This document shows positions 19,444-47,078 of a stretch of 64,000 bases of DNA, in pieces. The notes beneath the pieces are model-generated. The model was given only the letters and a program-made list of their open reading frames with translations. It did not search any database and had not been told where the DNA came from. The stretch lies in contig CAVUMN010000004.1 in NCBI GenBank assembly GCA_963742735.1, forward strand, positions 1,440,001 through 1,504,000, written 5' to 3'. Each line of letters begins with the position of its first letter. Within the stretch, counting starts at the first letter, position 1. A program made the translations under genes and the position numbers. The stretch is from an uncultured Actinomycetes bacterium (lineage in GTDB: Bacteria > Actinomycetota > UBA4738 > JBBDTT01).

Positions 19444-22141
<2,698 letters not shown>

Positions 22142-22172
22142 CTCGGACGCCTCCGCTCCCTCGTGAGGCGCC

Positions 22173-23287: not shown

Positions 23288-23314
23288 CAGCCCGGTCACC
23301 GCACACACATTGAG

Positions 23315-23330
23315 CGTGACCGAGGTCACA
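23315..23330 (+). promoter_or_regulatory. CRP/GlxR-type box upstream of FecR gene 1
   Basis: CGTGA-CCGAGG-TCACA. Confidence 0.75.
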
Positions 23331-23341
23331 GCTTGAAAAGG

Positions 23342-23371
23342 TTGTCCATTTCGCGTGTTGTCTAGGAGAAT
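23342..23371 (+). promoter_or_regulatory. Promoter shared by the FecR paralogs (copy 1)
   Basis: TTGTCC-N18-GAGAAT. Confidence 0.6.
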
Positions 23372-23446
23372 GACCGTGGATCGGGCGCCCCCCTCACTTC
23401 GCTGAGAGTGCTCGGGACCGTGTGGGCGACTGGAGGCGGGTGACGG

Positions 23447-26400
23447 ATGGCGAAGGCGGGCAAGAGCCGGTGGGCGATCGTGATCGCCATCCTGGCCGTC
23501 GTCGCGGTCGCCGCCGGGATTCTCATCTTCACCGGAGGCCAGTCCGAGGCGAAGCAGTTCGCCACCCTCCAGGTCCGCGAGGGACAGGTCGACGTCCGGA
23601 AGGCCGGCGCCGGGTTCCAGCCCGGCCGTGACGGCCAAGCGCTCGCCCAGGGCGACCTGGTTCGAACCGGACCGGACGGCATCGCGGAGATCACCTACTT
23701 CGATGGATCGCTGACCCGTCTGGGCCCCGACACCGAGTTCACGATCGAGGAGCTGTCCAGCCTCGACAACGACGCGAAGTCGAAGCGGATCAAGGGGTCG
23801 CACGACCGGGGCCGCACGTGGAATCGCGTCGAGAAGCTCGCGGACTCGGCGAGCCGGTTCGAGATCGAGACGCCGGTGGCGACGGCCGCGGCGCGCGGGA
23901 CCGTCTTCGCGACCTTCTGCGACTTCTTCGAGAACTGCACCATCGTCGCCATCGAGGACACCACCGAGGTCCTGATGGCGGACGGAACGGTCATCACCCT
24001 GAACGCCCTGGACGCGGTGACGATCAACGCCGACGGGACGCCGGGTGAGGTCATCCACTTCGACTCCCTCGACGCGTTGATCGAGGCGTTCGAGTGGGTC
24101 GACGAGAACGCGTGCGACATCGAGGAGATCGTCGACTGCGAGCCGGCCGAGCCCGAGCCCACGCCGACCGTGACGCCTCTTCCCGGTCCTTCGCCGACCG
24201 ACGGCACGTCGCCGGAGCCGATCGTCGAGCCGGCCGCCGAACCGCCGTCGAACTCGGTACCCGCTGCCGACTTCGCGCCGGCCTCGGCCACGGGCGGCGC
24301 GCCCCTGACCGTCGAGTTCACGAACCTCTCGTCCGATCCGGACGGCGACGCCCTGACCTTCGTGTGGGACTTCGGCGACGGCACGCCGCTGTCCGCGGCC
24401 GTGAACCCCTCGCACACCTTCGGGCTCGGCACGTGGAACGTGACCCTCACCGCGCGCGACGGCGCGGGCGCGACCGACTCGGCGACCCACACCATCTCCG
24501 CACTCGACATGACGGCGCCGGCCCCGCCGGTCATCACGTCACCGAGCGGCGCCGGCGTCATCGGCTCGGTGCCGATTACCTTCTCCGGCGACGCCGAGCA
24601 GGGCTCGGTCGTCAGGCTCTTCGACGGCGGGAGCCAGATCGGGTCGGACCAGGCGAACTCGCCGTTCGTGATCGTCGCGTCCCTCGCCGACGGGTCCCAC
24701 TCGATCACGGCGACGGCGACGGACGGCGCGGGGAATGAGAGCGGCCCGAGCGACCCGCTCCTCCTGGACGTCGAGGCCGTGAACGATCCACCGACCGCGT
24801 CCCTGTCCGTGGCGCCGGGCTCGGGGACACTCCCGCTCGCCGTGTCGTTCGACGGCTCCGGTTCTTCGGACAGCGACGATCCGCTCGACTCCTGGGTGCT
24901 CGCCTTCGGTGACGAGTCCACGGACGCGTCCGGCTCGGGAACGCCTCCCGCCTCGATCCCGCACACCTACTCGCCGGCCGGGCAGTTCGTGGCCACCCTC
25001 ACCGTCATCGATGCCCGTGGCGCGACCGACACCGACACCGCCACGGTCGATGTCAGCGAACCTCCGAACGCCGAGCCAAACGCGGTCAACGACACCGCCA
25101 CGACCGATGAGGACGACGCGGTCACGATCGATGTCCTCCTCAACGACACGGATTCGGACGGCGACACCCTCGACATCACGTCGGTCGGGACGCCCGCCGA
25201 CGGGGGCGCACAGATCGTCCTGGGCGACGCCGGCGAGGAGATCCAGTACACGCCCGACTCCGACTTCAACGGGGCGGACTCGTTCACCTACGCGATCTCG
25301 GACGGCAACGGCGGGACCGACTCGGCGACCGTCAACCTGACTGTCGATCCCGTCGACGACGAGGGTTCGGCCTCGCTCACCGCGGACGAGCCGGAGGGGA
25401 CCGCGCCCCACGAGGTCACCTTCACCATCGACGGCGAGGATCCCGACGGCCTGGTGAGCTGGTCGCTGGTCTTCGGCGACGAGGACACGGAGGGCGTCTC
25501 CGTCGCGTCGACGAACGGGGCGTGGCCGCCTCCCGCCGCGGGCGTGGCGCACACCTACGAGCTCCCCGGCGAGTACACCGCAACCCTGACGGTCACCGAC
25601 TCCGAGGGCGGTACCAGCCAGGCGACGACCGGCGTGACCGTCAACGCCCCGAACGCCGGGCCGACCGCTGTGCTGCTCCCCGAGACGGATACGGGTCACT
25701 GGCCGTACACCGTCTCCTTCGACGGGTCGGGCAGCAGCGACCCCGACGACGGGATCGCGTCCTGGTCGCTCGACTTCGGCGACGACAGCACTGACGCGTC
25801 CGGCACGGGAACGCCGCTGGCCTTGATCCTGCACGAGTACGAAAACCCGGGCGTGTACACCGCGACGCTCACCGTGACCGACGGCGAGGGTCTGACGGAC
25901 ACCGACACGTCCGCGATCACGGTCACCAACACGGCTCCGAACGCCGACGACGACACCCAGGTGACTGAGGAGAACAACTCCGTGTTCGTCGATGTCCTCG
26001 ACAACGACGAGGACCCTGACGGCGACGAGCTGACGATCGTCTCGGTCGGTGACCCCGCGAACGGCTTCGCCGAGATCGTCGAAACGGAGAGTGGGGGGCA
26101 GGCGGTCGAGTACACGCCGGACGAGGGGTTCGTCGGCAACGACACCTTCACGTACACGATCAGCGACGGCCAGACGACGGACAGCGCGAATGTCTCCGTG
26201 ACCGTCAACGCCCCGCCCGACGCGGTGGAGGATGCGTACCTGACCACGGATGACGAGGACACGGATGCGCCCGGGATCAACATCGGCGCCGAGAACGGCG
26301 TTCTCGCCAACGACGTGGACGACGAGGCGATCACCGCGACGCTGGTGGGCGACCCGTCCGGGGTGACTCTAAATGCGGACGGGTCGTTCACCGTGCTGTT

Positions 26401-29095
26401 CGCGTCCCCGTACGAAGACCTCCCCGTGCAGTTCGCGTACTCGGCGTGTGACCCGCTTGGCGCCTGCGACACGGCCACCGTCACCGTGAGCGAGCCGGCC
26501 GTCGAACTCGACGCGGTGAACGACACGGCCTCGCAGACCGGCGAACCGATCTACATCGACGTGCTCGAAAACGACCATGGCACAGGGATCTTCGTGGAGA
26601 GCTTCACCCAGCCGGGGTCCTCGCCGACCCAGGGCGAGGGCGCCGACGTCCACCGCAGCGAGGCCGAGGACAACAGCAACACCCTCGTCTACGCCCCGGG
26701 CGGAGGCTTCAGCGGTACCGACTCGTTCACCTACACGATCGAGGACGAGAACGGTGACCGGGATACGGCGACGGTGACGATTGAGGGCAGCGCGGATTCG
26801 GTAACGATCGTCCTGCATTGGCCGGCGGTCGGACGGGACCTGGATCTTCACGTGCAACCACCCACAGGGCTGCAGCTCTACTACGGCCTCCGGTGTCTGG
26901 AAGGCGCCACCCTGCCCTGCTGGGCCGAGCAGGACATCGACGTCACCCAAGGCCCCCCCGGAACCGAGACCGACACGATCTACACGCTCGATCCGAACTA
27001 TCAGACGGGCGGGTACGTCATCTACATCGACAACTTCTCCTGCGGCCAGCACACGTACGAGGGAACCGGGGCGACGGTGACCGTGAACACCGCCTCGGGC
27101 AGCCAGACCTTCAGCCTTCCGACTGGAGATCAGACGCTCCGGCAGTGGAACGTCGGAACGCTCACGCTCGGCGCCGCCGGCGCTGGCTCGGTGACCCCGG
27201 CGCAGACGTTCTCCGGCGGGTTCTGTGGGAACAATCCTCCAGTGGCGGTGGACGATGAGCTGCAGACGGCTCCCAACACGCCGCTGACGTTCTCGACCGG
27301 CGATCTCGAGGTCAACGACTACGACCTCGAGTTCGACGACTTCCACGTGGCCTCGATCGATGCGAGCTCGGCTCAGGGGGGCATCATCCAGGAGCAGTTC
27401 TGCGAAGGGAGCTACTGCGAGTACATCTACACGCCACCGGCCGACATCGAGAGCGACTCCTTCGACTATGTGCTGGTGGACGACAACTTGAACTCCGGCG
27501 AGGAGAGCGTGGGCACGGTGACCGTGCTGGTCGGGAACTCGGCGCCGGTCGCGGAGGACGACGAGATCACCGCGTCGATCGATCGGCCCAAGACCTTCTC
27601 GCCCTTCGAGCTGCTCTGGAACGATGTCGACCCCGAGGAGGACGAGATCCGCGTGCTCGAGGTGGACCCGGCCTCGACCGAGGGGGGCACGGTCGTGTTG
27701 CTGAACGGGGAGGATCCGGAGAACGCGCAGATCGAGTACACGCCGCCGGCGGAGTACACGGGACCCGATTCGTTCACCTACACGGTCGTGGATGTATACG
27801 GCGCAACGGACCCGGGGAGCGTTGGAACCGTGAACGTGACGGTCCTGGGCGAGGAGCCGCCGGTGGCTGTGGACGATCCCGACCCGGAGGTTCGGGGGGA
27901 GTTCGTCGTTCCGCCCGGGGCCCCGACGGAGCTCGCCAGCTCCCTGCTGACGATCAACGACCACGACCCCAACGACGATCCGTTGTCGATCATCTCGGTC
28001 GACGGATCGTCCTCTCTGGGGACGGTCGCGATGGCGGGATCTGGAGGCGTGCTGTACACGCCCCCCGATGATTTCCAGGGCCTCGACACCTTCACCTACA
28101 CGATCGGGGACGGGACGGGATTTACCGACAGCGCGACCGTCACCGTGGCCGTCGACGACAACCCCTGCACGGAGTTCGGCTGCGTAAACGAACCGCCGGT
28201 GGCCGGGCCAGATTTCGCCAGTACCCCAGAGGGCACACTCCTGACCCTGTCTCAGGAGGACCTGTTCGTAAACGACTTCGACCCGAACGGCGACGCCTTC
28301 TTCATCCTAGGAGTGGACGCCGCTTCGGTCGAGGATGGTGGGGAACCCGGCGTGCATCAGGTAAACGGGGTCACGTTCGTCACCTACAGGGCGAACGCGG
28401 GTTTCACCGGGATCGACTCGTTCTCGTACTACCTGGTGGACGAGTGGGGGAACGGCTTCGATGAGGACACAGGCGTCTCTGAGAGCGCAGGCCTGATCAC
28501 CGTCACCGTCGGGTCCGAGTTCGCTGGGTTGGCAGCCCCGGAGGGTTCCGACGAACGACTCCCGCGGTCGAGGCGCCACGGGGGAGATGCGGCGTCCACG
28601 GGTTCGGGCGCCACCCTCTCCCGGCTGCGCGCGGAGCTCTCCGGTACGAGCGCAACGCTCACCTGGGACGAGGGGATCGAGGGCGTGGCGCGGTGGTCCA
28701 CGACCGAGTACCCGACGCGGCCCACGGCGGGGACCGAGGGCTGCCGGGGAGTCGGGGAGTGTCGGATCGACGGCCTGCCCGGGGGCTCGACCGTGTACGT
28801 GACGGTGTTCAGCGAGCGGGGGCGGGTGACGCCGGTGGTCGACGTGAACGCGGTCCAGGTGGCCGTCCCGGCCTCGACGGAGCCCATTCCGACGGAGCCC
28901 ACTCCGACCGAGCCGACCCCGATCGAGCCGACCCCGACGGAGCCCGCCCCGACGGAGCCCGCCCCGACGGAGCCCACTCCGGCGGAGCCGCCGCCGCCCG
29001 AGCCGCTGGAACCGGCGCCGGCCGACGAGGCCACCCCGCCTCCTGAGCCGGTGGCCACCGAGCCGCCTGAGGACCCGGTGGAGGTCCCCGACTAG
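23447..29095 (+). CDS. Giant surface protein 1: TM + FecR-like + PKD/Ig/cadherin-like + YfaP-like + FN3-like + PTEP tail
   Basis: GDLVRTGPDGIAEITYFDGSLTRLGPDT and FEIETPVATAAARGTVF; WDFGDG PKD motifs; DVLxND and F.G.DSFTY repeats; DLDLHV segment. Confidence 0.85.
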   Translation: MAKAGKSRWAIVIAILAVVAVAAGILIFTGGQSEAKQFATLQVREGQVDVRKAGAGFQPGRDGQALAQGDLVRTGPDGIAEITYFDGSLTRLGPDTEFTIEELSSLDNDAKSKRIKGSHDRGRTWNRVEKLADSASRFEIETPVATAAARGTVFATFCDFFENCTIVAIEDTTEVLMADGTVITLNALDAVTINADGTPGEVIHFDSLDALIEAFEWVDENACDIEEIVDCEPAEPEPTPTVTPLPGPSPTDGTSPEPIVEPAAEPPSNSVPAADFAPASATGGAPLTVEFTNLSSDPDGDALTFVWDFGDGTPLSAAVNPSHTFGLGTWNVTLTARDGAGATDSATHTISALDMTAPAPPVITSPSGAGVIGSVPITFSGDAEQGSVVRLFDGGSQIGSDQANSPFVIVASLADGSHSITATATDGAGNESGPSDPLLLDVEAVNDPPTASLSVAPGSGTLPLAVSFDGSGSSDSDDPLDSWVLAFGDESTDASGSGTPPASIPHTYSPAGQFVATLTVIDARGATDTDTATVDVSEPPNAEPNAVNDTATTDEDDAVTIDVLLNDTDSDGDTLDITSVGTPADGGAQIVLGDAGEEIQYTPDSDFNGADSFTYAISDGNGGTDSATVNLTVDPVDDEGSASLTADEPEGTAPHEVTFTIDGEDPDGLVSWSLVFGDEDTEGVSVASTNGAWPPPAAGVAHTYELPGEYTATLTVTDSEGGTSQATTGVTVNAPNAGPTAVLLPETDTGHWPYTVSFDGSGSSDPDDGIASWSLDFGDDSTDASGTGTPLALILHEYENPGVYTATLTVTDGEGLTDTDTSAITVTNTAPNADDDTQVTEENNSVFVDVLDNDEDPDGDELTIVSVGDPANGFAEIVETESGGQAVEYTPDEGFVGNDTFTYTISDGQTTDSANVSVTVNAPPDAVEDAYLTTDDEDTDAPGINIGAENGVLANDVDDEAITATLVGDPSGVTLNADGSFTVLFASPYEDLPVQFAYSACDPLGACDTATVTVSEPAVELDAVNDTASQTGEPIYIDVLENDHGTGIFVESFTQPGSSPTQGEGADVHRSEAEDNSNTLVYAPGGGFSGTDSFTYTIEDENGDRDTATVTIEGSADSVTIVLHWPAVGRDLDLHVQPPTGLQLYYGLRCLEGATLPCWAEQDIDVTQGPPGTETDTIYTLDPNYQTGGYVIYIDNFSCGQHTYEGTGATVTVNTASGSQTFSLPTGDQTLRQWNVGTLTLGAAGAGSVTPAQTFSGGFCGNNPPVAVDDELQTAPNTPLTFSTGDLEVNDYDLEFDDFHVASIDASSAQGGIIQEQFCEGSYCEYIYTPPADIESDSFDYVLVDDNLNSGEESVGTVTVLVGNSAPVAEDDEITASIDRPKTFSPFELLWNDVDPEEDEIRVLEVDPASTEGGTVVLLNGEDPENAQIEYTPPAEYTGPDSFTYTVVDVYGATDPGSVGTVNVTVLGEEPPVAVDDPDPEVRGEFVVPPGAPTELASSLLTINDHDPNDDPLSIISVDGSSSLGTVAMAGSGGVLYTPPDDFQGLDTFTYTIGDGTGFTDSATVTVAVDDNPCTEFGCVNEPPVAGPDFASTPEGTLLTLSQEDLFVNDFDPNGDAFFILGVDAASVEDGGEPGVHQVNGVTFVTYRANAGFTGIDSFSYYLVDEWGNGFDEDTGVSESAGLITVTVGSEFAGLAAPEGSDERLPRSRRHGGDAASTGSGATLSRLRAELSGTSATLTWDEGIEGVARWSTTEYPTRPTAGTEGCRGVGECRIDGLPGGSTVYVTVFSERGRVTPVVDVNAVQVAVPASTEPIPTEPTPTEPTPIEPTPTEPAPTEPAPTEPTPAEPPPPEPLEPAPADEATPPPEPVATEPPEDPVEVPD
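28877..29090 (+). repeat. Pro-rich (P-T-E-P-x)n 15-bp coding repeats
   Basis: CCGACGGAGCCC-type units encoding PTEPT/PTEPA. Confidence 0.7.
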
Positions 29096-29138
29096 CTCGG
29101 AGTCGCTCCACCCGCCAGACCCCAACTCGCTCGGCGTC

Positions 29139-29167
29139 TTGTCCGGATCGCTCCGGTCGGGGAGAAT
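29139..29167 (+). promoter_or_regulatory. Promoter shared by the FecR paralogs (copy 2, no CRP box seen)
   Basis: TTGTCC-N17-GAGAAT. Confidence 0.55.
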
Positions 29168-29215
29168 CATCCTTCCGTGCGCCGGGATGTCCCGGCGAGC
29201 CGGAAGGAGACAGCG

Positions 29216-32200
29216 TTGTCGAAGGTGCGCAGACGCCGCCTGGCCCTTCTGTCCGGCATCGTGGTTCTGGCGCTGATCGGCGTCGGCCTTTTCGTGTTCC
29301 TCGGCGGCGACGCCTCGGCGAAGCAGTTCGCGACGCTCACCGTCCTGGAAGGCCAGGTCGAGGTGGCCGAGGACGGGGGAGACTTCGGGCCTGCCCGCGA
29401 CGGCCAGCCCCTGTCCCAGGGCGACGTGGTTCGCACGGGCGACGACGGCCGCGCCGAGATCGAGTACTTCGAGGGTTCGCTCACCCGGCTGGACTTCGAC
29501 ACGGAGTTCGAGCTCGAGGAGCTCGCCACCCTCGACGGGACGAGCACGCGGATCGTCGGGAACAAGACCAAGGGCCAGACCTGGAATCGCGTCACCAAGC
29601 TCGCCGACGCGGACAGTCGCTTCGAGATCAAGACCCCGAATGCGACGGCCGCGGTCCGGGGCACGCTGTTCCTCACGCGGTGCGACCCGACCGGCTGCAC
29701 GTTCGTCTCGCTCGAAGAGGCCATCGAGGTCTGCGTCGACGAGGAGTGCGTGACGTTGAACCCGTTCGACGTCGTGTTCGTCTCGGCCGACGGGGAGATC
29801 GGCCCGGTGACCCAGACGACCGAGGCGGAGCTCGCCGAGCTCGAGTGGGTCGTCTACAACCAGTGCGAGCTGGGGGATCGGGCGTTCCTCGTCGTCTTCG
29901 TCCTGTGTCCACCCGAGGAGCCGCCGACGCCGGAGCCGACGCCGCTGCCGGAACCGAGTCCCACCCCGACCGAGACGCCGGACGAGGGCGACGGCGTCAC
30001 CCCGCCCGAGGGCGAGACCCCGGGTGACGAGGGGACACCCGACGGCGACGGCGACGGGGGCGGCGGCGGTCCGGGCCCGGTCACTCCGCCGGGCGACGAC
30101 GATGCTCCCGCGCCGCCGGTGATCCTGGAGCCGGACCCCGGCGACACCGTGACGGGCAACCCGGTGACGATCCAGGGCCTGGCCGAGTCGGGCTCGACCG
30201 TTGGTGTCCTCGAGGGCTCCGAGCTGCTCGGGGTGACCCCGGTCAACTCGCCGTGGCAGATCGACCTTCGCTTCGCGCCGGGGACGCACACGATCCGGGC
30301 GACGGCGACCGACGCCGCGGGGAACCGCAGCAAGCCGAGCGACCCCGTGACCTTCGTCCTGGAGCTGATGCAGCCGCCGCCTCCACCGCCACCTTCAGCG
30401 GACCTCGCGGTGGAGAAGTCCGGACCCTCGTCGATCTTCGACGACGAGATCGCGAACTACGTCGTCACCGTGACCAACCGCGGCCCGGACGTCGCCGCCG
30501 ACGTCGTCCTCACCGACCGGGTCGAGGGCGGCCGCACCGAGAGCTTTGCGGGACCCGGCGACTGCACCCTCTCCGACTCGGAGCGGCGCGTGGTGTGTCG
30601 CCTCGGCGATCTCGAGCCCGGTGAGTCCGTGGGCCTCGGGGTGGACGTCGCCCCGGGTCCGCTCGCGGGCTCCATCGTCAACACCGCGTCGGTGGACTCC
30701 GACACGGACGACCCGCGGACGGGCAACTCGTCGGCGACCGCGGTCACGAGCATCACCCGTCGCGCGGCCAACCTGTCGCTGGTCAAGACCGGGCCGGCCT
30801 CAGCGGACGAGGGGGACTCGGTCGTCCATACGCTGACCGTGTCGAACGCGGGTCCCGACGACGCGATCGGCGTCACCACCACCGACACCGTCACGGGCGG
30901 CACGGTTTCCTCCGTCTCGGATCCCGCGGGTACGAGCTGTACCTTCGCCGGCTCGCAGGTCGACTGCTTCACCGCGGTCCTTCCCTCGGGGACGCAGGCG
31001 GTCATCCAGGTGACCGTCATGCCCAACGAGGGCGTTGCCGTCGTGCGCGACTCGGCCGTGACGTCGTCGGAGACCCTCGACCCGAACGAGGCGAACAACG
31101 ACGACACGTTCACCACCGCGATCATCCCCGACGTCGCGAACCTCTCCATCCAGAAGACCGGTCCGAGCACCATCGACGCGGATGGGGTGGCGGTGTACAC
31201 GATCACCGTCACCAACAACGGTCCGGCGGCCGCGGAGAACCTGGTGGTGGAAGACGTGGTCTCCGGCGGATTCATCGTGGGGATGTCCTCGGCGTCCGCG
31301 GGCGTCGACTGCCCGGACTTCGAGACCACCGGCGGAGGGCCCAGCTCCGAGACCTGCACGCTGGCCTCGCTCGGCGTGGGGCAGTCCATCCACATCCAGG
31401 TCGAGGTGCAACACGACGGCTCGTCGTCCTCGATCGTCGACTCCGCCACCGCGTCCGCGGACAACGCCGAGCCGAAGTCCGACGGCGCGACGACCAACGT
31501 GGACTTCCCCGCCCCGGATCTGTCCATCAACAAGTCCGGCCCGAACGCCATCGAGTCGGGAGACGAGGCGACCTACACCATCACGGTGAGCAACGACGGG
31601 GACGCGGCGGCGACCAACGTCGTGGTGACCGACACCGTGCAGTTCGGTGGGTTCATCGACTCGATGTTCTCCGAGTCGCCGGGTGTGGACTGTCCCGGCG
31701 GAGGCGACGAGGTCACGGCCGCGTTCGATCAGGCGGCCTGCACCATGGAGTCGCTCGATCCCGGCGAGACGATCGAGATCGAGGTCGAGGTCGATCACGA
31801 CGGCGAGTCGCCGGCGATCCTGAACACGGCGAACGCCTCGGCCGACAACGCGCAATCGGTCTTCGACGGCAAGGTCACTCAGGTGAACGAACCGGCCGGA
31901 GCAGACCTCGAGGTGACCAAGACGGGGGACACCCTCATCGGAGAGTTCGACGACGCGGAGTACACCGTGACGGTTACGAACAACGGACCCGAGACGGCGA
32001 CCAACGTCCTGCTCGACGAGGAGCTGACCAACGCGACCTTCGACGAGGTCAGCGCGGGCAAGGGCAGTCCCTGTGGTTTCTTCACGCCGGGGAACATGAG
32101 CATCATCACGGACTGTCCCCTCGGAGACATCGCCCCCGGGGACTCGGTCTCGCTCTTCGTCGAGGCCGCTCCGGACGGGCCGGGCACGATGACCAACACC

Positions 32201-32821: not shown

Positions 32822-32851
32822 GCACAATTGTGTTCAAGAGTCCACGCTCAA

Positions 32852-32867
32852 CGTGACAAGGGTCACT
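32852..32867 (+). promoter_or_regulatory. CRP/GlxR-type box upstream of FecR gene 3
   Basis: CGTGA-CAAGGG-TCACT. Confidence 0.65.
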
Positions 32868-32876
32868 CTGGAAACC

Positions 32877-32906
32877 TTGTCCCATTCGGCCAGCATCAGG
32901 GAGAAT
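32877..32906 (+). promoter_or_regulatory. Promoter shared by the FecR paralogs (copy 3)
   Basis: TTGTCC-N18-GAGAAT. Confidence 0.6.
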
Positions 32907-32970
32907 AGGGCCGTTCGGGCGCCCCCCAGTCTCGCTGACGGCGCACCGGTACTTCTAGGGAAGCGGGCTG

Positions 32971-38658: not shown

Positions 38659-38711
38659 CCCGGGGACTGTGACCCGGCTCGACGCGACGGACCTCGCGTG
38701 AGCACCAGCTC

Positions 38712-40691
38712 ATGAAGCGCTCGCCCCTGTTCCGCATCGCCGTTTCGATCGTGATCGCCGGCCTCGTCACGCTCGGCTCCTGGGCGGGCCTCGACGCCAA
38801 CATCTTCGGCGGCTCGCAGCTGCGCTTCGCGGACGCCCTGTTCCCCGCGACCGACGCCGACACCCGCGTGGTGGTCGTCGGGATCGATGACGCGAGCCAG
38901 ACCGAGCTCGGCCAGTGGCCGTTCCCGCGCCGGGTCCACGCCCGGATCGTCGACAACCTCTCCCGCGCGGGCGCGAACGTCATCGTCTACGACGTCGTGT
39001 TCGACCCGGGCACCCCCAATGACGCCGCGTTCGCGGCCTCGATCAAGGACGCCGGCAACGTCATCCTCGCGGCGGCGGCCGAGTTCCCGCCCGGAAAGCC
39101 CGAGGGCAACCTCCTGGTCGCGGATCAGTTCGTGCCGCCGGTTCCCGAGCTCGCCGAGCCGGCGCTCGCCGTGGCCCACGCCAACGTGACCCCCGACGCC
39201 GACCAGACCGTCCGCGCCATCCCCCTCGTCATCGACGTGGGAGGCGAGCTGGTGCCGTCGCTGTCGCTCCAGGCCCTGATGACCATGGAGGGCCTCGAGG
39301 GGCCCCTGACCCTTCGCAAGGAGGCCCTGCAGGTCGGCGACACGACCATCCCGGTGGGCGAGGGCCAGATCATGGACCTGAACTTCGCCGACGAGCTGAA
39401 GTTCGAGCCGGACCTCTCGGCGGGGCAGGTCTACAACAACGAGTTCGATCCCGAGGCGGTGACCGGCAAGACCATCTTCATCGGGACCACCGACTTCACC
39501 CTGCGCGATACCCGCATCACGCCGATCGGAGAGATCCCCGGGGTGTTCGTCCACGCCAACGCGCTCAACACCATGCTGCGCGGCGCGTTCATCGAGCCGG
39601 CCTCGCTCGGCACGAACCTCCTGGCCGTGTTCGTCCTTGCCTTCGCGATCGCGATCATCGTCCAGTTCCTGCCGATGACCCTGTCGTGGATCGCCGCGGT
39701 GGCCCTGGGCGTCGTCTACATCCTGTTCGTGTTCTCGAGGGCCGACAACGGCACCGTGATGAACTTCGTGTACCCGAACGGCGCCATCGGCTTCGGCTTC
39801 GTCGCGTCCCTCGGCGTGAAGTACTTCACCGAGGTCCGAGAGCGCCGGCGCGTAACCCAGACGTTCGGGCGGTACCTGTCCAAGGACGTGGTCGCGGAGG
39901 TCCTGTCCGCCCCCGAGGGGGCGGTCGCCACGCTGAAGGGAGCCATGCGTCCGCTCTCGGTCCTGTTCGCCGACCTCCGCGGGTTCACGGCCGCCTCCGA
40001 GAACGCCCTGCCGGGGGACGTCGTCACCGCACTCAACATCTACCTGGACGCCATGACCCGTGCCGTGGTCGAGGAGAAGGGGACCATCGACAAGTTCATG
40101 GGTGACTGCGTGATGGCGTTCTGGGGCGCGCCGAAGCCCGACGCCGACTACGTGAACCGCGCGGTCCGCGCCGGCATGCGGATGCTCGACTACATCGACG
40201 AGGCCGTGGCGACGCGCGAGGAGATCCAGCTGCTGAAGGTCAAGGGGTGCGGCGTGGGGATCTCCGCGGGGATGGCCGTGGTCGGCAACATCGGCTCGCA
40301 CGAGCGCCTGGACTACACGGCCATCGGCGACACCGTGAACACCGCCAGCCGGCTGTGCGGAGTGGCCGGCGCCGGCGAGGTCGTGGTGACCGAGGACGCC
40401 GCCGCGTTCCTGGACGAGGCGACCTTCCGGATGGCCGCGCTCCCGCCCCTGCTGGTGAAGGGCAAGGTCGAGCCGCTGCACGTCTTCCAGGTCCTGCGCG
40501 AGGGCCAGGAGGCGAAGGTGTTCGCCGAGGGCGAGACCATCGACACCGCCGAGGAGAAGGGCCATTTCGAGCCGGACCTCAAGGCCGTTCCCGAGCCCCC
40601 GAAGGCCGCCGGCTACGCACCCGTGGAGCCCGCCTCCACGAAGCCGGACGGCGCCGTGATCAGCCCCCAGGAGAAGGAACCGGCCGAGTAA
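38712..40691 (+). CDS. CHASE2-domain class III adenylate cyclase
   Basis: VVVGIDDAS..LGQWPFPR, YDVVF, PGVFVHANAL (CHASE2), TM cluster; catalytic LFADLRGFT, DKFMGDCVMAFW, DYTAIGDTVNTASRL (Lys/Thr specificity residues indicate ATP). Confidence 0.93.
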   Translation: MKRSPLFRIAVSIVIAGLVTLGSWAGLDANIFGGSQLRFADALFPATDADTRVVVVGIDDASQTELGQWPFPRRVHARIVDNLSRAGANVIVYDVVFDPGTPNDAAFAASIKDAGNVILAAAAEFPPGKPEGNLLVADQFVPPVPELAEPALAVAHANVTPDADQTVRAIPLVIDVGGELVPSLSLQALMTMEGLEGPLTLRKEALQVGDTTIPVGEGQIMDLNFADELKFEPDLSAGQVYNNEFDPEAVTGKTIFIGTTDFTLRDTRITPIGEIPGVFVHANALNTMLRGAFIEPASLGTNLLAVFVLAFAIAIIVQFLPMTLSWIAAVALGVVYILFVFSRADNGTVMNFVYPNGAIGFGFVASLGVKYFTEVRERRRVTQTFGRYLSKDVVAEVLSAPEGAVATLKGAMRPLSVLFADLRGFTAASENALPGDVVTALNIYLDAMTRAVVEEKGTIDKFMGDCVMAFWGAPKPDADYVNRAVRAGMRMLDYIDEAVATREEIQLLKVKGCGVGISAGMAVVGNIGSHERLDYTAIGDTVNTASRLCGVAGAGEVVVTEDAAAFLDEATFRMAALPPLLVKGKVEPLHVFQVLREGQEAKVFAEGETIDTAEEKGHFEPDLKAVPEPPKAAGYAPVEPASTKPDGAVISPQEKEPAE

Positions 40692-40734
40692 ACTTCCGCG
40701 GTACAGGCCTTCCCCCCGACCAGAGACGAGGCCC

Positions 40735-41598
40735 ATGGCCGAGGCACGCACCATCGACGCGGACAGGGAGGCGCAGGTCGAGCGCCTCAAGGACGTCGCC
40801 CGCGAGCTGCGCGTCACCGACATCGAGATGCTCACCGAGGCCGGCTCGGGCCACCCCGGCGGAACCCTCTCCGCGGCCGACCTGGTCGCGGCCCTCTACT
40901 TCTACAAGCTGCGCCTGCGGCCGGAGGAGCCGGCCTGGCCCGACCGGGACCGGTTCATCCTGTCGAAGGGCCACTGCATCCCGATCGTCTACGCGGCCAT
41001 GGCCAAGCTCGGGTTCTTCGAGGAGAAGCTCCTGATGACCCTGCGCAAGCTGGGCTCGCCTCTGCAGGGCCACCCCGACCGGACCCGCCTGCCGGGGATC
41101 GAGGCCTCGACGGGCTCGCTCGGGCAGGGCCTGTCCGTGGCGGTGGGGATGGCGATCGCGGCCAAGCTCGACAAGGCCAGCTGGCGCGTCTACTGCATGC
41201 TCGGCGACGGCGAGGTCCAGGGCGGCCCGGTGTGGGAGGCGTCGATGCTCGCGGGCTACCGCAAGCTCGACAACCTGTGCGGGATCCTGGACGCCAACCA
41301 GGTCCAGCAGACCGGCAAGGTCACGGATCGGCTGGACATCGAGCCGACCGTCGCCAAGTGGCGCGCGTTCAACTGGCACGTTCGCGAGATCGACGGGCAC
41401 GACATGGCCGAGATCGTCGACGCGCTCGACGAGGCCGAGGTCGTGGCCGACCGGCCGACGATGATCGTGGCCCGGACCGTGAAGGGGAAGGGCGTGTCCT
41501 GGATGGAGCTCAACTCGAGCTGGCACGGCAAGGCCCCGAACCCCGAGGAAGCCAAGAAGGCCATCGCCGAGCTCCGTGGCGAGGCAGGTGAGGCCTGA
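40735..41598 (+). CDS. Transketolase N-terminal subunit
   Basis: GSGHPGG, DRFILSKGH, TGSLGQG, GDGE, WHG. Confidence 0.92.
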   Translation: MAEARTIDADREAQVERLKDVARELRVTDIEMLTEAGSGHPGGTLSAADLVAALYFYKLRLRPEEPAWPDRDRFILSKGHCIPIVYAAMAKLGFFEEKLLMTLRKLGSPLQGHPDRTRLPGIEASTGSLGQGLSVAVGMAIAAKLDKASWRVYCMLGDGEVQGGPVWEASMLAGYRKLDNLCGILDANQVQQTGKVTDRLDIEPTVAKWRAFNWHVREIDGHDMAEIVDALDEAEVVADRPTMIVARTVKGKGVSWMELNSSWHGKAPNPEEAKKAIAELRGEAGEA

Positions 41599-42545
41599 TG
41601 GCCGGCGGCGGCAGCGGCGCCACCCGCGACGCGTGGGGCCAGGCCATCGCCCGCGTCGGCGCCGACGAGCGGATGGTCGTGCTGGCGGGCGACCTGCGCG
41701 ACTCCACCAAGGTGGAGGGGTTCATCGAGAAGTATCCCGAGCGCTACGTGGAGTGCGGCATCGCCGAGATGAACATGATCGGGGTCGCCTCGGGCCTGGC
41801 CCTGTCCGGGAAGGTCCCGTGGGCCTGCTCGTTCTCCGCGTTCGTGACCGGACGCATGGAGATCATCCGGGTGAGCGTGTCCTACCAGGAGGCGAACGTC
41901 CGCCTGGTCGGCACCCACTGCGGCGTCGGGGTGGGGGAGGACGGCTACTCGCAGATGGCGCTGCAGGACATCGCCGAGATCCGCTCGCTGCCGAACGTGG
42001 CCATCGTCCAGCCCGCCGACGCCGTCGAGACCGAACGGGCCGTCGAGTACCTGGCCGAGCACCAGGGGCCGGCGTTCCTGCGCCTGACCCGCCAGAAGGT
42101 CGACGACGTCCACGACGACGGCTACACGTTCGCCTTCGGCCGGGCCGACCGGCTCCGCGACGGGGACGACGTGGCGCTGATCGGCACGGGGGCGACCGTC
42201 GGGGAGTGCATGAAGGCCGCCGAGGTCCTGGAGGGCCGGGGCATCTCCGCGCGCGTGGTCAACATCCACACGATCAAGCCGCTCGACGAGGAGGCCATCC
42301 TGGACACGGCCTCGGCGTGCTCGGCGATCGTCACGGTCGAGGACCACGGCATCTGGGGCGGCCTGGGTGGCGCGGTGGCCGAGGTCCTGGCGGCGGCGCC
42401 CGAGAACGGCTCGCGGGCGCGGCTGCACATCATCGGTGTGCGCGGCTTCGGCGAGTCCGGCACGTCCGAGGAGCTCTACGAGCTGCACGGCCTGTCCGGC
42501 GCCCGCGTCGCCGACCAGACCGAGGCGTTCCTGAAGGGCATCTGA
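41598..42545 (+). CDS. Transketolase C-terminal subunit
   Basis: GIAEMNM, GEDGYSQ, TIKPLD, VEDH..GGLG. Confidence 0.9.
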   Translation: MAGGGSGATRDAWGQAIARVGADERMVVLAGDLRDSTKVEGFIEKYPERYVECGIAEMNMIGVASGLALSGKVPWACSFSAFVTGRMEIIRVSVSYQEANVRLVGTHCGVGVGEDGYSQMALQDIAEIRSLPNVAIVQPADAVETERAVEYLAEHQGPAFLRLTRQKVDDVHDDGYTFAFGRADRLRDGDDVALIGTGATVGECMKAAEVLEGRGISARVVNIHTIKPLDEEAILDTASACSAIVTVEDHGIWGGLGGAVAEVLAAAPENGSRARLHIIGVRGFGESGTSEELYELHGLSGARVADQTEAFLKGI

Positions 42546-42551
42546 CCGCCT

Positions 42552-42567
42552 TGTGAGGTCGGTCACA
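42552..42567 (+). promoter_or_regulatory. Perfect CRP/GlxR consensus box upstream of patatin-ABC operon
   Basis: TGTGA-GGTCGG-TCACA; candidate -10 CATACT at 42606-42611. Confidence 0.8.
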
Positions 42568-42621
42568 CTCGGGGCCTGGTCTAGTTTCGGGAGGGTCGAA
42601 GCGCGCATACTTCGCAAGGTG

Positions 42622-44874
42622 ATGCCCCGCGCTCCACGATCCTCCACCCCTCGACGCACGAAGATCTCCGCGATCGTCGAGGTACTCGGTCGCGCCGGGC
42701 CGTTCAAGGACCTCGGCCGGCGTGACCTGGCGGCCCTCGCCGAACGCCTCGAGCCTGTCGGGCTGGCCGCGGGCGAGACGCTGCTGTCCCAGGACGGAGC
42801 CGGGGACGACGTCTTCGTCGTCCTCGCCGGTTCGCTCGCCGTCCTCGCGGCCGACGGGAACGGCACCGCCCGGGTGGCGGAGGTGGGACCCGGTGACGTC
42901 GTCGGGGAGAACGCGGTGCTGACCGGCGAGCGCCGGGCCGCCACCGTCCGCGCGAACGGGCGTGCCCGGGTGGGCAGGCTGTCCCGGGAGGCGTTCGGAG
43001 AGATCCTGTCCGCGCATCCCCGGGTGGCCGAGCGCATGGCCAAGGAGATGGACCGGCGAACCATCGATCGTCTGCTGGCGACCGACCTCGCCCGGCTGTT
43101 CGGTCCCCTGGACCCGGAGGTCCGAGAGCAGCTGCGCTCCCGGCTCGAGTGGCGCCACCTGGCCGCCGGCGACGTCCTGTTCTCCGAGGGCGAGCCGGCC
43201 GACTCGGCGTACTTCGTGGTGCTCGGGCGCCTGCGCGCCCGGGCGAGCCCCTCGGCCAACGGCTCGGCCGAGGCGTGGACGGACGTCCCGGCGGGGGAGC
43301 TGGTTGGGGCAGCCGCCCTGCTCGACGGCGGCGTGCGGGCCCGAACGGTGGCCGCGGTCCGGGACTCCTACCTGGTGAAGCTCCCGGCCGACGTCCTCGC
43401 GCTGCTGTCGAAGGACCACCCCGAGGCGATCCTCGGCGTGGCCCGCAGCCTGGTCCGTCAGATCACCCAGCCGCCCGTCCGCGGCGGCGCGGGCCGGCGG
43501 TGCTCGGTGGTGCTCATCCCGGCCGCGCTCGACGTCGACCTCCGCATGTTCGCCTCGCGGCTGGCCGAGATGCTGTCCGAGGACGGTCCGACCTTCCACC
43601 TGTGGGGCGCGCGGGTCGACAGCGCGCTGGGGACGCCCGGGGTGTCCCAGTCGAAGGCCGGGGACCCGGGCGACGTGCGGGTCAGCCGATGGCTGGACAC
43701 CGTGGAAGAGGCGAATCGGTTCCTGGTGTTCGAGGCCGACGGCGAGGACTCGGCCTGGACCCGGCGGGCCCTGCGCCAGGCCGACCACGTCCTGATCCTG
43801 GCGGACGCCACGGCCGAGCCGGTCGCGCCCGGGGCCGCGGTCGCCGAGCTGATCCAGGCGGGCGGCACGCCGGTCTCCCTGGTGCTGCTCCAGCGCGGCG
43901 GCCCCCACCTGCCCACCGGCACGGACCGGTGGCTGGACGCGATGGGCGTCGACGACGTCATCCACCTCCGGCGGGGCTCACCCCACGACCTGCAGCGGCT
44001 GGGGCGCGTGGTGTCGGGGCGGGCGGTGGCCATGGTCTTCAGCGGAGGGGGCGCGCGAGGGTTCGCCCACCTCGGCGTCATTCGGGCCATGCACGGGCTG
44101 GGGGTTCCCATCGACATCGTGGGGGGGTCCTCGATGGGTGCGGCGGTCGCCACCGGCCTGGGGATGGGCGTCTCCATCGAGGACATGATCCCGATGGTCA
44201 AGAAGCGCTTCGCGCGGCTGCGCGACTACACCCTTCCGGTCGCCTCATTCCTGAAGGGGAAGCGCATCACCCAGGCCATGCAGGCGGAGTTCGGCGAGCA
44301 CCTCATCGAGGACCTGTGGCTGCCGTTCTTCTGCATCACGACGAACATGACGACGTTCGGCGAGGCCGTGCATCGCCGAGGCCCGCTGGTGCAGATCCTG
44401 CGTGCGTCCACGGCCCTGCCCGGCGTCCTGCCTCCCGCGTCGATCGGCGGCGAGGTTCACATCGACGGGGGAGTCATCAACGATTTCCCGATCGACGTGA
44501 TGCGCCGGCTGCATCCGAACTCGATCGTGATCGGCTCCGACGTGACCCCCAAGCGCGGGCCCGGCGCCAAGGACGACTACGGGCTGTGGCTGTCGGGGAT
44601 GCGGGCGATCGGCAAGAGGGTCGGCAGGCACCAGAGGATCCCCGGCATCGGCGACACGCTGATGCGGTCCATGACCGTGAGCGCCATGCGCCAGCGCGAC
44701 CGGGCGATCGAGGAACATCACGCCGACCTGGTGCTGCACCACGACATGCGCGGCGTGAGCCTGCTGGACTTCGACGCCGTCGAGGCCGTGGCCGAGCGCG
44801 GCTACCAGTCCGCCCTCCCGCAGCTGACGGCGTGGTTCGAGCAGCGGGACATCGCGACGAAGGGAGCGAGCTGA
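42622..44874 (+). CDS. cNMP-binding patatin-like phospholipase (NTE family)
   Basis: Two CNB domains (GENAVLTGERRAATV; second degenerate); GGGARG, GSSMG, IDGG patatin motifs. Confidence 0.9.
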   Translation: MPRAPRSSTPRRTKISAIVEVLGRAGPFKDLGRRDLAALAERLEPVGLAAGETLLSQDGAGDDVFVVLAGSLAVLAADGNGTARVAEVGPGDVVGENAVLTGERRAATVRANGRARVGRLSREAFGEILSAHPRVAERMAKEMDRRTIDRLLATDLARLFGPLDPEVREQLRSRLEWRHLAAGDVLFSEGEPADSAYFVVLGRLRARASPSANGSAEAWTDVPAGELVGAAALLDGGVRARTVAAVRDSYLVKLPADVLALLSKDHPEAILGVARSLVRQITQPPVRGGAGRRCSVVLIPAALDVDLRMFASRLAEMLSEDGPTFHLWGARVDSALGTPGVSQSKAGDPGDVRVSRWLDTVEEANRFLVFEADGEDSAWTRRALRQADHVLILADATAEPVAPGAAVAELIQAGGTPVSLVLLQRGGPHLPTGTDRWLDAMGVDDVIHLRRGSPHDLQRLGRVVSGRAVAMVFSGGGARGFAHLGVIRAMHGLGVPIDIVGGSSMGAAVATGLGMGVSIEDMIPMVKKRFARLRDYTLPVASFLKGKRITQAMQAEFGEHLIEDLWLPFFCITTNMTTFGEAVHRRGPLVQILRASTALPGVLPPASIGGEVHIDGGVINDFPIDVMRRLHPNSIVIGSDVTPKRGPGAKDDYGLWLSGMRAIGKRVGRHQRIPGIGDTLMRSMTVSAMRQRDRAIEEHHADLVLHHDMRGVSLLDFDAVEAVAERGYQSALPQLTAWFEQRDIATKGAS

Positions 44875-45920
44875 TGCTGTTGGTCACCCTGAGGGACCTT
44901 CAGTACCGCAAGGTCCGGTTCCTGCTGGTGACGCTGGGGACCGGGCTGGTGTTCGTGCTGCTGCTGTTGATGAGCGGGCTCACCGCGCAGTTCCGCCGCG
45001 AGCCGCTGGCCACCGTCGAGGCGATCGGGGCCGACGGCTGGGTCCTGCGAGCCGGCGCGACCGGGGCGTTCACCTCTGCGGCCACGCTGGAGCCTGGGAT
45101 CGCCGCGGGGATCCAGGGTGCGACGCGCGCGGATCCCCTGGTCATCGCGCGGCACAGCCTGGACGTGGACGGCGCGCCCATGGACATCGTGGTGATCGGC
45201 TACGTGCCGGGCGGGCTTGGGGTGCCGACGGTGATCGAGGGGCGCCTGCCGGCGTCGAGCGGCGAGGTCACGATCGACGAGTCCTCCGGCGTCGCGGTGG
45301 GTGATCCCGCCAAGGTCGGCTCGCAGACGTTCACCGTGGCGGGGCTGACCACCGACACGACGTTGCTGGGCGGCATGCCCCTGCTGTTCATGGAGCTCGA
45401 GGACGCCCAGGCGCTGGTCTACCGGGGGCGCCCCGCCGCGAGCGCCATCGTCGTGGAGGGCACGCCGACCTCGGTCCCGGAGGGGTACGCGCTGCTGTCG
45501 AACGAGGCGGTCGCCGAGGACGCCACCCGTCCGCTGGATCGCGCCATCTCCTCGGTCAGCCTGGTGCGAAGCCTGCTGTGGGTCGTGTCCGCGATGATCA
45601 TCGGCGGGGTCGTGTACCTCTCGGCGCTGGAGCGCCGGCGGGACTTCGCGGTCATGAAGGCCGTCGGCACGTCGACCGCGGCGCTGCTGTTCGGGCTCGC
45701 GCTCCAGGGGGTGCTCGTGGCGATCCTGGCGGCGATCCTGGCCACGGGCCTGCAGGCGGTCCTGGTCCCCATCTTCCCGCTGAAGGTGACGGTGACGACG
45801 TCGGTGCTCACCCAGCTGCCGGTCGTGGCGGTGTTGATCGCGATCCTTGCCAGCCTCGGCGGAATGCGCCAGGTGGCGCGGACCGATCCCGCGTCGGCGT
45901 TCGGGGGGCCGGCGTCATGA
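44874..45920 (+). CDS. ABC transporter permease (MacB/FtsX-like)
   Basis: LRDLQYR N-terminus, TM + extracellular loop + 3 TM, LERRRDFAVMKAVG. Confidence 0.88.
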   Translation: MLLVTLRDLQYRKVRFLLVTLGTGLVFVLLLLMSGLTAQFRREPLATVEAIGADGWVLRAGATGAFTSAATLEPGIAAGIQGATRADPLVIARHSLDVDGAPMDIVVIGYVPGGLGVPTVIEGRLPASSGEVTIDESSGVAVGDPAKVGSQTFTVAGLTTDTTLLGGMPLLFMELEDAQALVYRGRPAASAIVVEGTPTSVPEGYALLSNEAVAEDATRPLDRAISSVSLVRSLLWVVSAMIIGGVVYLSALERRRDFAVMKAVGTSTAALLFGLALQGVLVAILAAILATGLQAVLVPIFPLKVTVTTSVLTQLPVVAVLIAILASLGGMRQVARTDPASAFGGPAS

Positions 45921-47020
45921 CCCCGACCAAGCTCTCCGTTCGGGACCTGGTCGTCGAGTACCAGACCGAGAACTACAAGGTGCGACCCATCGAGGGTCTG
46001 AGCTTCGAGGCGTCCGAGGGCGAGATCGTCGTTCTGCTCGGTCCCTCGGGCTCCGGGAAGACCACGCTGCTGTCCTGTCTGGCGGGGATCCTGACCCCGA
46101 CGTGGGGGTGGATCGAGGTCGGCGACACGGTGGTCACCGAGCTCGCCGCGGGGAAGATGGCCGAGTACCGGCGGCGGCAGGTCGGGATCATCTTCCAGGC
46201 GTTCAACCTGATCGCCTCGCTGTCCGCCCGGGAGAACGTGGCGATGCCGCTCATGGTGGGCTCGGGGATCTTCAAGAACGAGGTCCCCAAATCCGAGGCC
46301 CTGAAGCGCGCCGACGAGCTCCTGGCGCTGGTGAACCTGGCCGACCGCGCCCATCACCGTCCCGGACAGCTCTCGGGAGGGCAGCAGCAGCGGGTGGCGA
46401 TCGCCCGCGCGCTGATCTACGACCCCCCGATGCTGCTGGCCGACGAGCCGACGGCGAACCTGGACTACATCCAGGCGGAGGGGATCGTTCGCGCCCTCCG
46501 TGACCTGAAGGCGAAGGGCCGGATCATCGTGATCGCCACCCACGACGAGCGCCTGGTGCCGATCGCGGACCGCGTCGTGCAGCTGGTGCCGGACGTGCAC
46601 GGCGAGAGCGGACCTCCCCAGCGCGTGGAGTACGCCGCCGGCGAGACGATCTTCCAGCAGGGCTCGCGGGGCCAGCTGATCTACGTGATCGAGGGGGGCC
46701 GGGTCGATCTGGTTCGCGACCTGGCGGACGGGGGCGAGGAACCGCTGGCGCTGCTCGACGCCGGCCAGTACTTCGGCGAGCTCGGCCCGTTCCTGGGGAT
46801 GCCCAGGGCGGCGACGGCGCGGGCCAAGACCGACGTGGTCCTCACCGCCTACGGCGTGCAGGACTTCCGCCGCAAGCTGGGCGAGCTCAAGGCGGGGCAG
46901 GACGGCAACGGAACCCGGATCAAGAGGAAGCGCCCCGCCAAGAAGACGGCGGCGAAGAGGTCCGCCGGGAAGAAGCCGGCCGCCAAGAAGGCCGCCGCGA
47001 GGGTTCGTTCCCGTTCCTGA
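45917..47020 (+). CDS. ABC ATPase fused to C-terminal cNMP-binding domain, Lys-rich tail
   Basis: GPSGSGKT, LSGGQQQR, LADEPT; GQYFGELGPFLGMPRAATARA; PAKK tail. Confidence 0.9.
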   Translation: MTPTKLSVRDLVVEYQTENYKVRPIEGLSFEASEGEIVVLLGPSGSGKTTLLSCLAGILTPTWGWIEVGDTVVTELAAGKMAEYRRRQVGIIFQAFNLIASLSARENVAMPLMVGSGIFKNEVPKSEALKRADELLALVNLADRAHHRPGQLSGGQQQRVAIARALIYDPPMLLADEPTANLDYIQAEGIVRALRDLKAKGRIIVIATHDERLVPIADRVVQLVPDVHGESGPPQRVEYAAGETIFQQGSRGQLIYVIEGGRVDLVRDLADGGEEPLALLDAGQYFGELGPFLGMPRAATARAKTDVVLTAYGVQDFRRKLGELKAGQDGNGTRIKRKRPAKKTAAKRSAGKKPAAKKAAARVRSRS

Positions 47021-47078
47021 GTTCCTCTGCTAGCATCGGGCGACCCACCCACCTACTTCCTGGGGATGAGGCGCGTCC

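Follow-up and report, generated by a model that had tools for sequence, protein, structure and literature searches.

Signal perception through the CHASE2 adenylate cyclase CyaK of Sinorhizobium meliloti requires the outer-membrane protein NsrA (PMC7529298), and in the wider NsrA-CyaK/CyaD1/CyaD2-Clr system a CHASE2 cyclase depends for this perception on a separate envelope protein encoded nearby (PMC7529298, PMC13001267). Two further reports describe a Burkholderia 'BiofilmReg' operon encoding a LysM-FecR protein and a CHASE2 histidine kinase (PMC5192318), and a Campylobacterota cluster encoding a CHASE2 cyclase, a FecR outer-membrane protein, a TPR protein and a phosphodiesterase (PMC9239204). 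As in these two systems, an exported FecR-domain protein is encoded beside a CHASE2 receptor in the locus analyzed here, which lies in a stretch of 64,000 nucleotides (the window) from an uncultured soil Actinomycetes bacterium (GenBank assembly GCA_963742735.1, contig CAVUMN010000004.1, positions 1,440,001 to 1,504,000). There, three genes for large FecR-headed surface proteins (A, B and C) precede the gene of a predicted CHASE2 receptor adenylate cyclase (Table 1). Gene neighborhood gives good support to a functional pairing of FecR with CHASE2. We also consider it reasonably probable that the FecR surface protein or proteins and the cyclase form a two-part extracytoplasmic sensor.

The FecR-CHASE2 pairing itself is already known from Burkholderia, Campylobacterota and Sinorhizobium. 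What is new is its actinobacterial form, which lacks a barrel and has an N-terminal anchor or lipobox, giant stalks of immunoglobulin (Ig)-like repeats and several heads per cyclase. As for NsrA and CyaK, the candidate partner, here a FecR-domain protein, is encoded near the CHASE2 cyclase, and rhizobial plasmids likewise have a FecR-domain protein annotated directly beside CHASE2 cyclases; NsrA itself presumably contains a FecR domain. However, NsrA is an outer-membrane beta-barrel, whereas the partners found here have a putative N-terminal anchor, carry a giant Ig-repeat stalk and are three in number, and their genome gives no Omp85 match. Also, in contrast to NsrA-CyaK-Clr, no CRP-type regulator is encoded in the block. 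The Burkholderia and Campylobacterota partners are LysM or outer-membrane proteins rather than Ig-repeat stalks, the Burkholderia output is a kinase, and the hosts are diderm. Our literature search, which covered articles but not their supplementary files, returned no description of a FecR-CHASE2 pairing in Actinobacteria. The original prediction overstated the novelty: the pairing is in print and widespread, and barrel-less FecR partners are also present in the monoderm Oscillospiraceae.

Table 1. Features of the locus and of related loci. Positions refer to the window unless a related locus is named; ORF, open reading frame; ABC, ATP-binding cassette; cNMP, cyclic nucleotide; aa, amino acids.
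Feature	Position	Strand	Details
secA	19450-22131	+	L001 SecA matches in at least three frames (19450-20220, 20207-21754, 21759-21977, 22060-22131)
prfB (release factor 2)	22177..23313	+	PCRF domain in listed ORF; upstream border of block
FecR-headed surface protein A, 1882 aa	23447..29095	+	FecR 71-181, 40.0 bits; 4 PKD, 9 Big_9/cadherin-like stretches
Gly151-Thr152 codons of A	23897..23902	+	Conserved GT, aligned with Gly181-Thr182 of E. coli FecR
FecR-headed surface protein B, 1214 aa	29177..32821	+	FecR 83-177, 39.5 bits; 5 DUF11 and CARDB
FecR-headed surface protein C, 1895 aa	32971..38658	+	FecR 71-156, 27.9 bits; 13 Big_9/cadherin-like, 1 PKD
Predicted CHASE2 receptor class III adenylate cyclase, 659 aa	38712..40691	+	CHASE2 25-313, 167.5 bits; Guanylate_cyc 414-587, 78.4 bits
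Transketolase, N half (tktN)	40735-41598	+	Pfam, NCBIfam
Transketolase, C half (tktC)	41598-42545	+	Pfam, NCBIfam; 1-base overlap with N half
NTE-like cNMP-binding patatin phospholipase, 773 aa	42553..44874	+	Two cNMP_binding domains, 109.4 bits; NTE_Ploop, 66; Patatin, 107.6
FtsX-like ABC permease, 348 aa	44874..45920	+	Start overlaps patatin stop by 1 base
FtsE/LolD/MacB/DevA-type ABC ATPase with C-terminal cNMP domain, 367 aa	45917..47020	+	Start overlaps permease stop by 4 bases
ftsE and ftsX (cell-division ABC pair)	47079..48633	+	Downstream border of block
DUF11 and RTX calcium-binding-repeat gene	L004:7992-9989		
DUF11 and RTX calcium-binding-repeat gene	L012:7282-9984		
DUF11 and RTX calcium-binding-repeat gene	L016:264-1883		

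As originally predicted, A, B and C are tandem paralogs that share an N-terminal hydrophobic segment and a FecR-like head of about 200 residues, followed by a Pro-rich linker and then by the repeats. Over the first 300 residues A is 50% identical to B and 56% identical to C, and four cysteines are invariant across the three. All three heads exceed the curated Pfam cut-off for FecR (PF04773, 24 bits), in agreement with a six-frame search of the genome, and Pfam also matched the CHASE2, Guanylate_cyc, cNMP and patatin domains that had been proposed from the sequence alone. The stalks, by contrast, are not entirely different as had been claimed: A and C are built from the same domain families and share 29% identity over about 1500 residues, and A and B have a stretch of about 90 residues in common at 44-45%, with visibly similar C-terminal domains. 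C is the closest paralogue of A, with which it pairs in the head tree (support 95/97), and the heads of the related loci L025 and L009 each form a group of their own; head duplications therefore arose within lineages.

An AlphaFold2 model of the A head, built with an alignment of 31 sequences, has a mean pLDDT of 82.4 and comprises a helix (7-27), an all-beta domain (39-193, most blocks of which exceed a pLDDT of 90) and two short helices (208-224). Foldseek returned only four matches in the PDB at E<=0.001, namely 4m0n, 4m0h chains A and B, and PupR (6ovk_R), with E values of 3.7e-7 to 8.5e-6, 140-150 aligned columns and TM scores of 0.52-0.53 per target. All are periplasmic FecR-type anti-sigma domains, that is, protein-binding signaling modules, and the modeled head has their FecR-type periplasmic domain fold. 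Below threshold, NCBIfam also matched the head to the Leptospira surface proteins Lsa33 and LipL45.

A, B and C resemble FecR-type anti-sigma factors in this head fold, in their Pfam FecR matches over the cut-off and in a Gly-Thr (GT) dipeptide that aligns, weakly, with that of FecR. They differ from them in three respects. First, none contains a cytoplasmic anti-sigma domain, only about 6-25 residues preceding the membrane segment. Second, none of the 33 Sigma70_r2 matches of the genome falls within the window, in which no extracytoplasmic function (ECF) sigma factor is therefore found. Third, the TonB-dependent receptor family PF00593 has no match in this 88.9% complete genome while it matches the diderm controls. 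The prediction had noted the absence of both an ECF sigma factor and a TonB receptor from the window, and we rejected the anti-sigma candidate on these three grounds: A, B and C are FecR-domain proteins but not FecR-type anti-sigma factors. Omp85 likewise has no match in the genome, with a match in each of seven diderm controls, and this is consistent with a monoderm host that has no outer membrane. Pfam also detects no beta-barrel family in A, B or C, so that the partners are barrel-less, as had been proposed.

We found neither an LPXTG motif nor a C-terminal hydrophobic or transmembrane segment in A, B or C. This excludes a sortase-anchored (LPXTG) adhesin and leaves the N-terminal segment as the only candidate anchor. 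Its Kyte-Doolittle maximum over 19 residues is 3.2-3.3 in A and C and 2.8 in B, and an A-x-A motif follows it, so that the segment may serve as a signal anchor or else be a signal peptide that is removed. In the relatives L025, L008 and L001, a lipobox-like L-A-[AG]-C replaces the A-x-A. In both cases the head would be positioned on the outer side of the membrane, except if cleavage at A-x-A sets the protein free.

The gene that follows C after 53 bp encodes the predicted CHASE2 receptor adenylate cyclase, in which hydrophobic windows at about 3-30 and 293-345 flank the CHASE2 domain. The catalytic residues are kept, as had been read from the sequence: D421, K461, D465, T536, N543 and R547 are invariant among 20 cyclase orthologues and line up with the conserved motifs of the solved Pseudomonas aeruginosa CyaB (3r5g). 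We take D421 and D465 to be the metal-binding aspartates, K461 the substrate lysine, N543 and R547 the transition-state residues, and the Lys/Thr pair to be adenine-specific. Among solved structures, the catalytic domain matched the adenylate-cyclase part of the 6fht chimera (E 6e-33), CyaB 3r5g (1e-26) and 1wc0/1wc1. The closest relatives of the cyclase (48-65% identity) come from metagenome-assembled genomes (MAGs) labeled Actinomycetota or Acidimicrobiia. Genome-wide, the single CHASE2 match and all three FecR matches fall in the locus.

Co-location of FecR genes with the cyclase in relatives, on which the original prediction depended, was found in each of our surveys. By searching with the cyclase, we obtained 219 candidate stretches, of which 190 encode a relative; 80 were kept (L001-L028 being actinobacterial), and heads were detected in them by tblastn and a head hidden Markov model (HMM). 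Twelve actinobacterial loci offer at least 8 kb of sequence upstream of the cyclase; in 11 of them, all but L017, this sequence holds FecR-head ORFs on the cyclase strand, one to four per locus (three in L009 and four in L025). Where less than 3 kb is available upstream, a head was seen in 2 of 11 loci, and in L003 and L005 a long upstream ORF runs off the contig. The head proteins of the relatives range from 404 to 1973 residues, and the short, almost stalkless ones (404-425 residues) in L001, L008 and L009 are encoded equally close to the cyclase. A separate DUF11 and RTX gene stands directly upstream of the cyclase in L004, L012, L016 and, judged by position, L011. It is preceded by a FecR gene in L004, L011 and L012; in L016, only about 260 bp of contig remain ahead of it. 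Since DUF11 repeats are fused to the head in B, a stalk-like protein can therefore be either fused or separate.

Among 60 genomes of the same order, CHASE2 occurs in 13, FecR in 15 and both in 11. In seven of these 11, FecR lies 1-6 kb upstream of CHASE2 on the same strand (the published G012, G023, with three heads, and G046; the unpublished G014, G027, G031 and G052), and in the other four the two are on different contigs of fragmented assemblies. In a survey of 400 genomes of the phylum, CHASE2 exceeds the cut-off in 26, of which 15 also have FecR, and the two adjoin each other in nine (G012, G014, which is unpublished, G068, G110, G139, G150, G171, G176 and G266), on the same strand in all of them except G266, where they are on opposite strands. 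The six genomes with both domains apart are G019, G137, G178, G231, G302 and G384.

Outside the phylum, the head HMM matched 13 of 19 CHASE2 cyclase loci. In Oscillospiraceae/Faecalibacterium (L033, L034 and L043), a head ORF of roughly 340 residues abuts the cyclase; barrel-less FecR partners in monoderms are therefore not unique to the Actinomycetota lineage. In both rhizobial plasmids inspected (L081 and L082), a RefSeq 'FecR domain-containing protein' is encoded beside CHASE2 cyclases. A single metagenomic record (P0025, 1569 residues) fuses LysM (75-117), FecR (160-265), CHASE2 (625-926), PAS, GGDEF and EAL in one protein. The FecR pairing tracks CHASE2 and not the output domain, which can be a cyclase, a histidine kinase or a GGDEF-EAL fusion.

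Three side observations concern these relatives. Next to the CHASE2 cyclase and FecR genes of L081 and L082 also lie secretion genes and the gene of an NHLP-type bacteriocin export ABC transporter. Two Clostridia MAGs encode a small cNMP protein directly upstream of the CHASE2 cyclase (L029:2261-2983 and L030:7041-7937), and no head was detected there. Finally, a 346-residue head relative (P0015) bears the NCBI name 'FecR family protein [Cryobacterium psychrophilum]', from which it follows that cultured Microbacteriaceae carry the head family.

In the two-part sensor that we favor, the N-terminal hydrophobic segment, or a lipid anchor in some relatives, would hold A, B and C at the outer face of the membrane and so would bring the FecR beta-domain next to CHASE2 in the cyclase. 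Built of Ig repeats, the long, acidic stalk would extend through the cell wall and past it. An event at the stalk or head, such as binding of a ligand or surface, tension or proteolysis, could then be relayed from the FecR head to CHASE2 and alter the synthesis of cyclic AMP (cAMP) in the cytoplasm. The topology, the head-CHASE2 contact, the direction of signaling and the adhesin function of the stalks are all features that we infer from the sequences.

Several points weigh against this sensor. The physical contact between head and CHASE2 is one that we infer, and a complex prediction with head A (36-235) and CHASE2 (28-298), both given as alignments, scored 0.00, which speaks neither for nor against binding. 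The conserved neighborhood alone fits a co-sensor or a co-regulated cargo equally, and cannot tell them apart. Cleavage at the A-x-A site would release A, B and C, which have no other anchor. The orthologous cyclase of L017 has no FecR gene within 10 kb upstream. In G384, three tandem FecR genes (C3:211584-215042) lie on another contig than the CHASE2 gene, and this is a real exception to adjacency because the assembly has only 20 contigs; nor is there a FecR gene on the CHASE2 contig of G231. In the phylum, 11 of the 26 CHASE2-positive genomes have no FecR match and 36 FecR-positive genomes have no CHASE2 match over the cut-off, so that neither domain generally needs the other. Finally, the survey counts are descriptive and not independent, since the genomes are related and the surveys overlap with one another and probably also with the cyclase loci.

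A broader reading, that of the original prediction, would make the whole 24-kb block a single dedicated pathway, in which three antennae act on one cyclase and cAMP acts locally on the patatin, for lipid remodeling, and on a gated ABC exporter. We regard this as doubtful. In its favor, all genes from A to ftsX share one strand and no gap between them exceeds 149 bp; from A to ftsE, the gaps are 81, 149, 53, 43, -1, 7, -1, -4 and 58 bases. The cyclase ends 43 bp before tktN, and the transketolase, patatin, permease and ABC genes that follow are, from their spacing (-1, 7, -1 and -4), translationally coupled. Moreover, the first cNMP domain of the patatin and the cNMP domain of the ABC ATPase keep the Gly-Glu and the Arg, which we take to be the key residues of the phosphate-binding cassette, and rhizobial CHASE2 cyclase and FecR loci also adjoin ABC exporters. 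The relatives nevertheless argue against it. With an HMM made from the 16 cNMP domains of the genome, we found a cNMP domain near the cyclase in only 1 of the 28 actinobacterial relative loci (L018, on the opposite strand), and the genes downstream of the cyclase vary, encoding a YfhO-like protein, a subtilase or an amino-acid ABC importer. In L005, however, the same split transketolase pair recurs, 2.7 kb downstream of the cyclase. We found the cNMP-patatin in 13 of the 400 other genomes of the phylum, and in two loci (L090 and L093) an orthologue of the cNMP-ABC ATPase (55% and 48% identity) abuts it in genomes that have no CHASE2 match (G188 and G330). As the patatin loci were taken with flanks of 1.5 kb, these 2 of 15 loci are a lower bound.

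The size of the cAMP signaling complement also argues against dedicated outputs. With 16 cNMP-binding domains and 44 matches to the class III cyclase domain, 42 of them over the cut-off, this complement is very large for a genome of 3.08 Mb. Of the 11 cNMP loci, 4 fall within 8 kb of a cyclase domain where 1.9 would be expected (P about 0.10), so that their proximity does not exceed chance. No match to the PDEase_I profile was found anywhere, which carries no information because the controls gave none either. The proposal that the cNMP-patatin and cNMP-ABC are outputs of this cyclase is thus weakened, and the transketolase, cNMP-patatin, permease and cNMP-ABC genes are best read as a separate cAMP-responsive cassette standing beside the sensor by chance. 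The cassette may respond to the CHASE2 cyclase, not demonstrably over the 40-odd others in the genome. The predicted 'cNMP-ABC exporter' does follow the split transketolase and the cNMP-patatin, but consists of two genes, permease then ATPase. We take Rv2564 and Rv2565 of Mycobacterium tuberculosis to be an ABC ATPase and an NTE-like patatin. These adjacent genes both encode cNMP-binding domains (PMC4886424), and they resemble the pair found here in this adjacency but differ in having no link to a CHASE2 cyclase. As a separate observation, the last 35 or so residues of the cNMP-ABC ATPase (46900-47020) form a basic tail, rich in Lys, Ala and Arg, that resembles histone-like or DNA-binding tails.

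Another explanation turns the direction of signaling around or dispenses with it: A, B and C would be ordinary adhesins or wall proteins, the FecR head being a structural foot, and their genes would be controlled by cAMP or simply co-transcribed with the cyclase. The stalks do consist of typical adhesin repeats (Big_9, cadherin-like, PKD and DUF11), the sub-threshold matches of the head to Lsa33 and LipL45 point to surface proteins, and the contact between head and CHASE2 is postulated. However, the pairing follows CHASE2 across a cyclase, a histidine kinase (PMC5192318) and a GGDEF-EAL fusion, heads of 404-425 residues that nearly lack a stalk are linked to the cyclase just as tightly (L001, L008 and L009), and the FecR fold is a known signaling and protein-binding module. 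We therefore think this explanation unlikely.

A more specific version of the sensor concerns the GT dipeptide of the heads. Among the 31 heads, G151 is invariant and T152 is conserved in at least 90%, and the head HMM places G181-T182 of E. coli FecR on this dipeptide, in a weak alignment (5.9 bits). Gly181-Thr182 is the self-cleavage site of E. coli FecR (PMC8144685). Because the head GT is conserved and aligned with this site, the FecR head might be a self-cleaving module that serves CHASE2 as a mechanosensor of stalk pulling, akin to the GAIN or SEA domains of animal adhesion receptors, the proposed likeness being autoproteolysis with non-covalent association. An anchored N-terminal piece and a stalk-bearing C-terminal piece would then stay non-covalently joined until a pull on the Ig-repeat stalk of 1200-1900 residues, from its attachment to a particle or surface outside the cell wall, separates or deforms them, upon which CHASE2 would change cAMP. 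We hold this to be quite improbable. If it were true, three interchangeable antennae on one cyclase would amount to mechanosensory surface sensing in a bacterium without an outer membrane, and would offer a tractable model for FecR-CHASE2 communication.

That the adjacency of adhesins and cyclase is due to chance, or the ORFs to faulty assembly, is conceivable given the indel errors described below, but it is effectively refuted by the recurrence of the arrangement in many independent assemblies. The three long ORFs, open and covered by domains along their length, also speak against it, and we consider it extremely improbable. The source genome (G000, the locus being on contig C4) comprises 3.08 Mb in 5 contigs and is 88.9% complete. 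In the window, at least three frames are needed to match secA, and exactly where the first of these frame changes falls, at 20216, one base is missing from a short-read contig of a soil run. Two frames are needed to read prfB, in which a 1-base frameshift near 22845 moves the GGQ half into the next frame; tblastn with the L001 protein puts the change at about 22838-22881. The classical programmed frameshift site of prfB lies near codon 26, and the change seen here is not at that position; it is probably an assembly error of the same kind as in secA. Taken together, the frames of secA and prfB and the missing base make assembly indels likely. The ORFs of A, B and C are otherwise open, with domain matches along their length. 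B (32700-32821) and C (38520-38658) end in low-complexity tails rich in Arg, Thr and Asp, and the tail of A is rich in Pro, Thr and Glu. Indel errors may have affected the Arg-rich 3' ends of B and C; the three tails could be natural, or some could be others read in a shifted frame.

Sequencing runs cover the region thinly. For 37000-46900, only one soil DNA run contains a small share (0.14) of the region's words, and no RNA run is listed. On 19000-38900, run X1 gave thin, patchy cover of the adhesin genes, with four single-letter differences in single low-depth contigs. A scan of 28500-48000 returned no promoter-like site and six terminator-like sites against 4.6 expected, and is thus uninformative.

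The genes of the locus, from secA through ftsX, all lie on the plus strand, and the window has a high GC content (0.66-0.75). The original prediction took the block between prfB and ftsEX to be accessory, and the relatives bear this out. Among the 24 that carry prfB and ftsX on one contig (four of them unpublished: G006, G014, G027 and G030), the start-to-start distance is 3.2-8.4 kb in 23 and 17.6 kb in G002, compared to 25.6 kb in the source genome. A FecR gene follows prfB also in L001, L007, G012 and G004, and the cyclase then follows except in G004, where CHASE2 is on another contig. In G014, G019, G023 and G027, the FecR and CHASE2 genes are on contigs other than that of prfB-ftsX, which is compact there. 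A recent foreign island is not supported: the GC content of the block (0.66-0.70) is near that of its surroundings (about 0.70), and the position after prfB is also used in L001, L007, G012 and G004.

In the literature that we surveyed, we found no ligand or activation mechanism for CHASE2, a widespread sensor domain, and the recurrent FecR partner is the best lead on how it is activated. The partners in diderms are tied to outer-membrane barrels, which complicates experiments, whereas the actinobacterial version would bring an anchored head and its receptor together in one membrane. It also comes as a natural series, from about 400 residues (head only) to about 2000 (giant stalk) and with one to four heads per cyclase, that suits asking whether FecR binds CHASE2, whether the GT dipeptide is a site of self-cleavage and whether the stalks are antennae. 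More generally, FecR domains of Actinomycetota would appear to work outside the sigma/anti-sigma setting.

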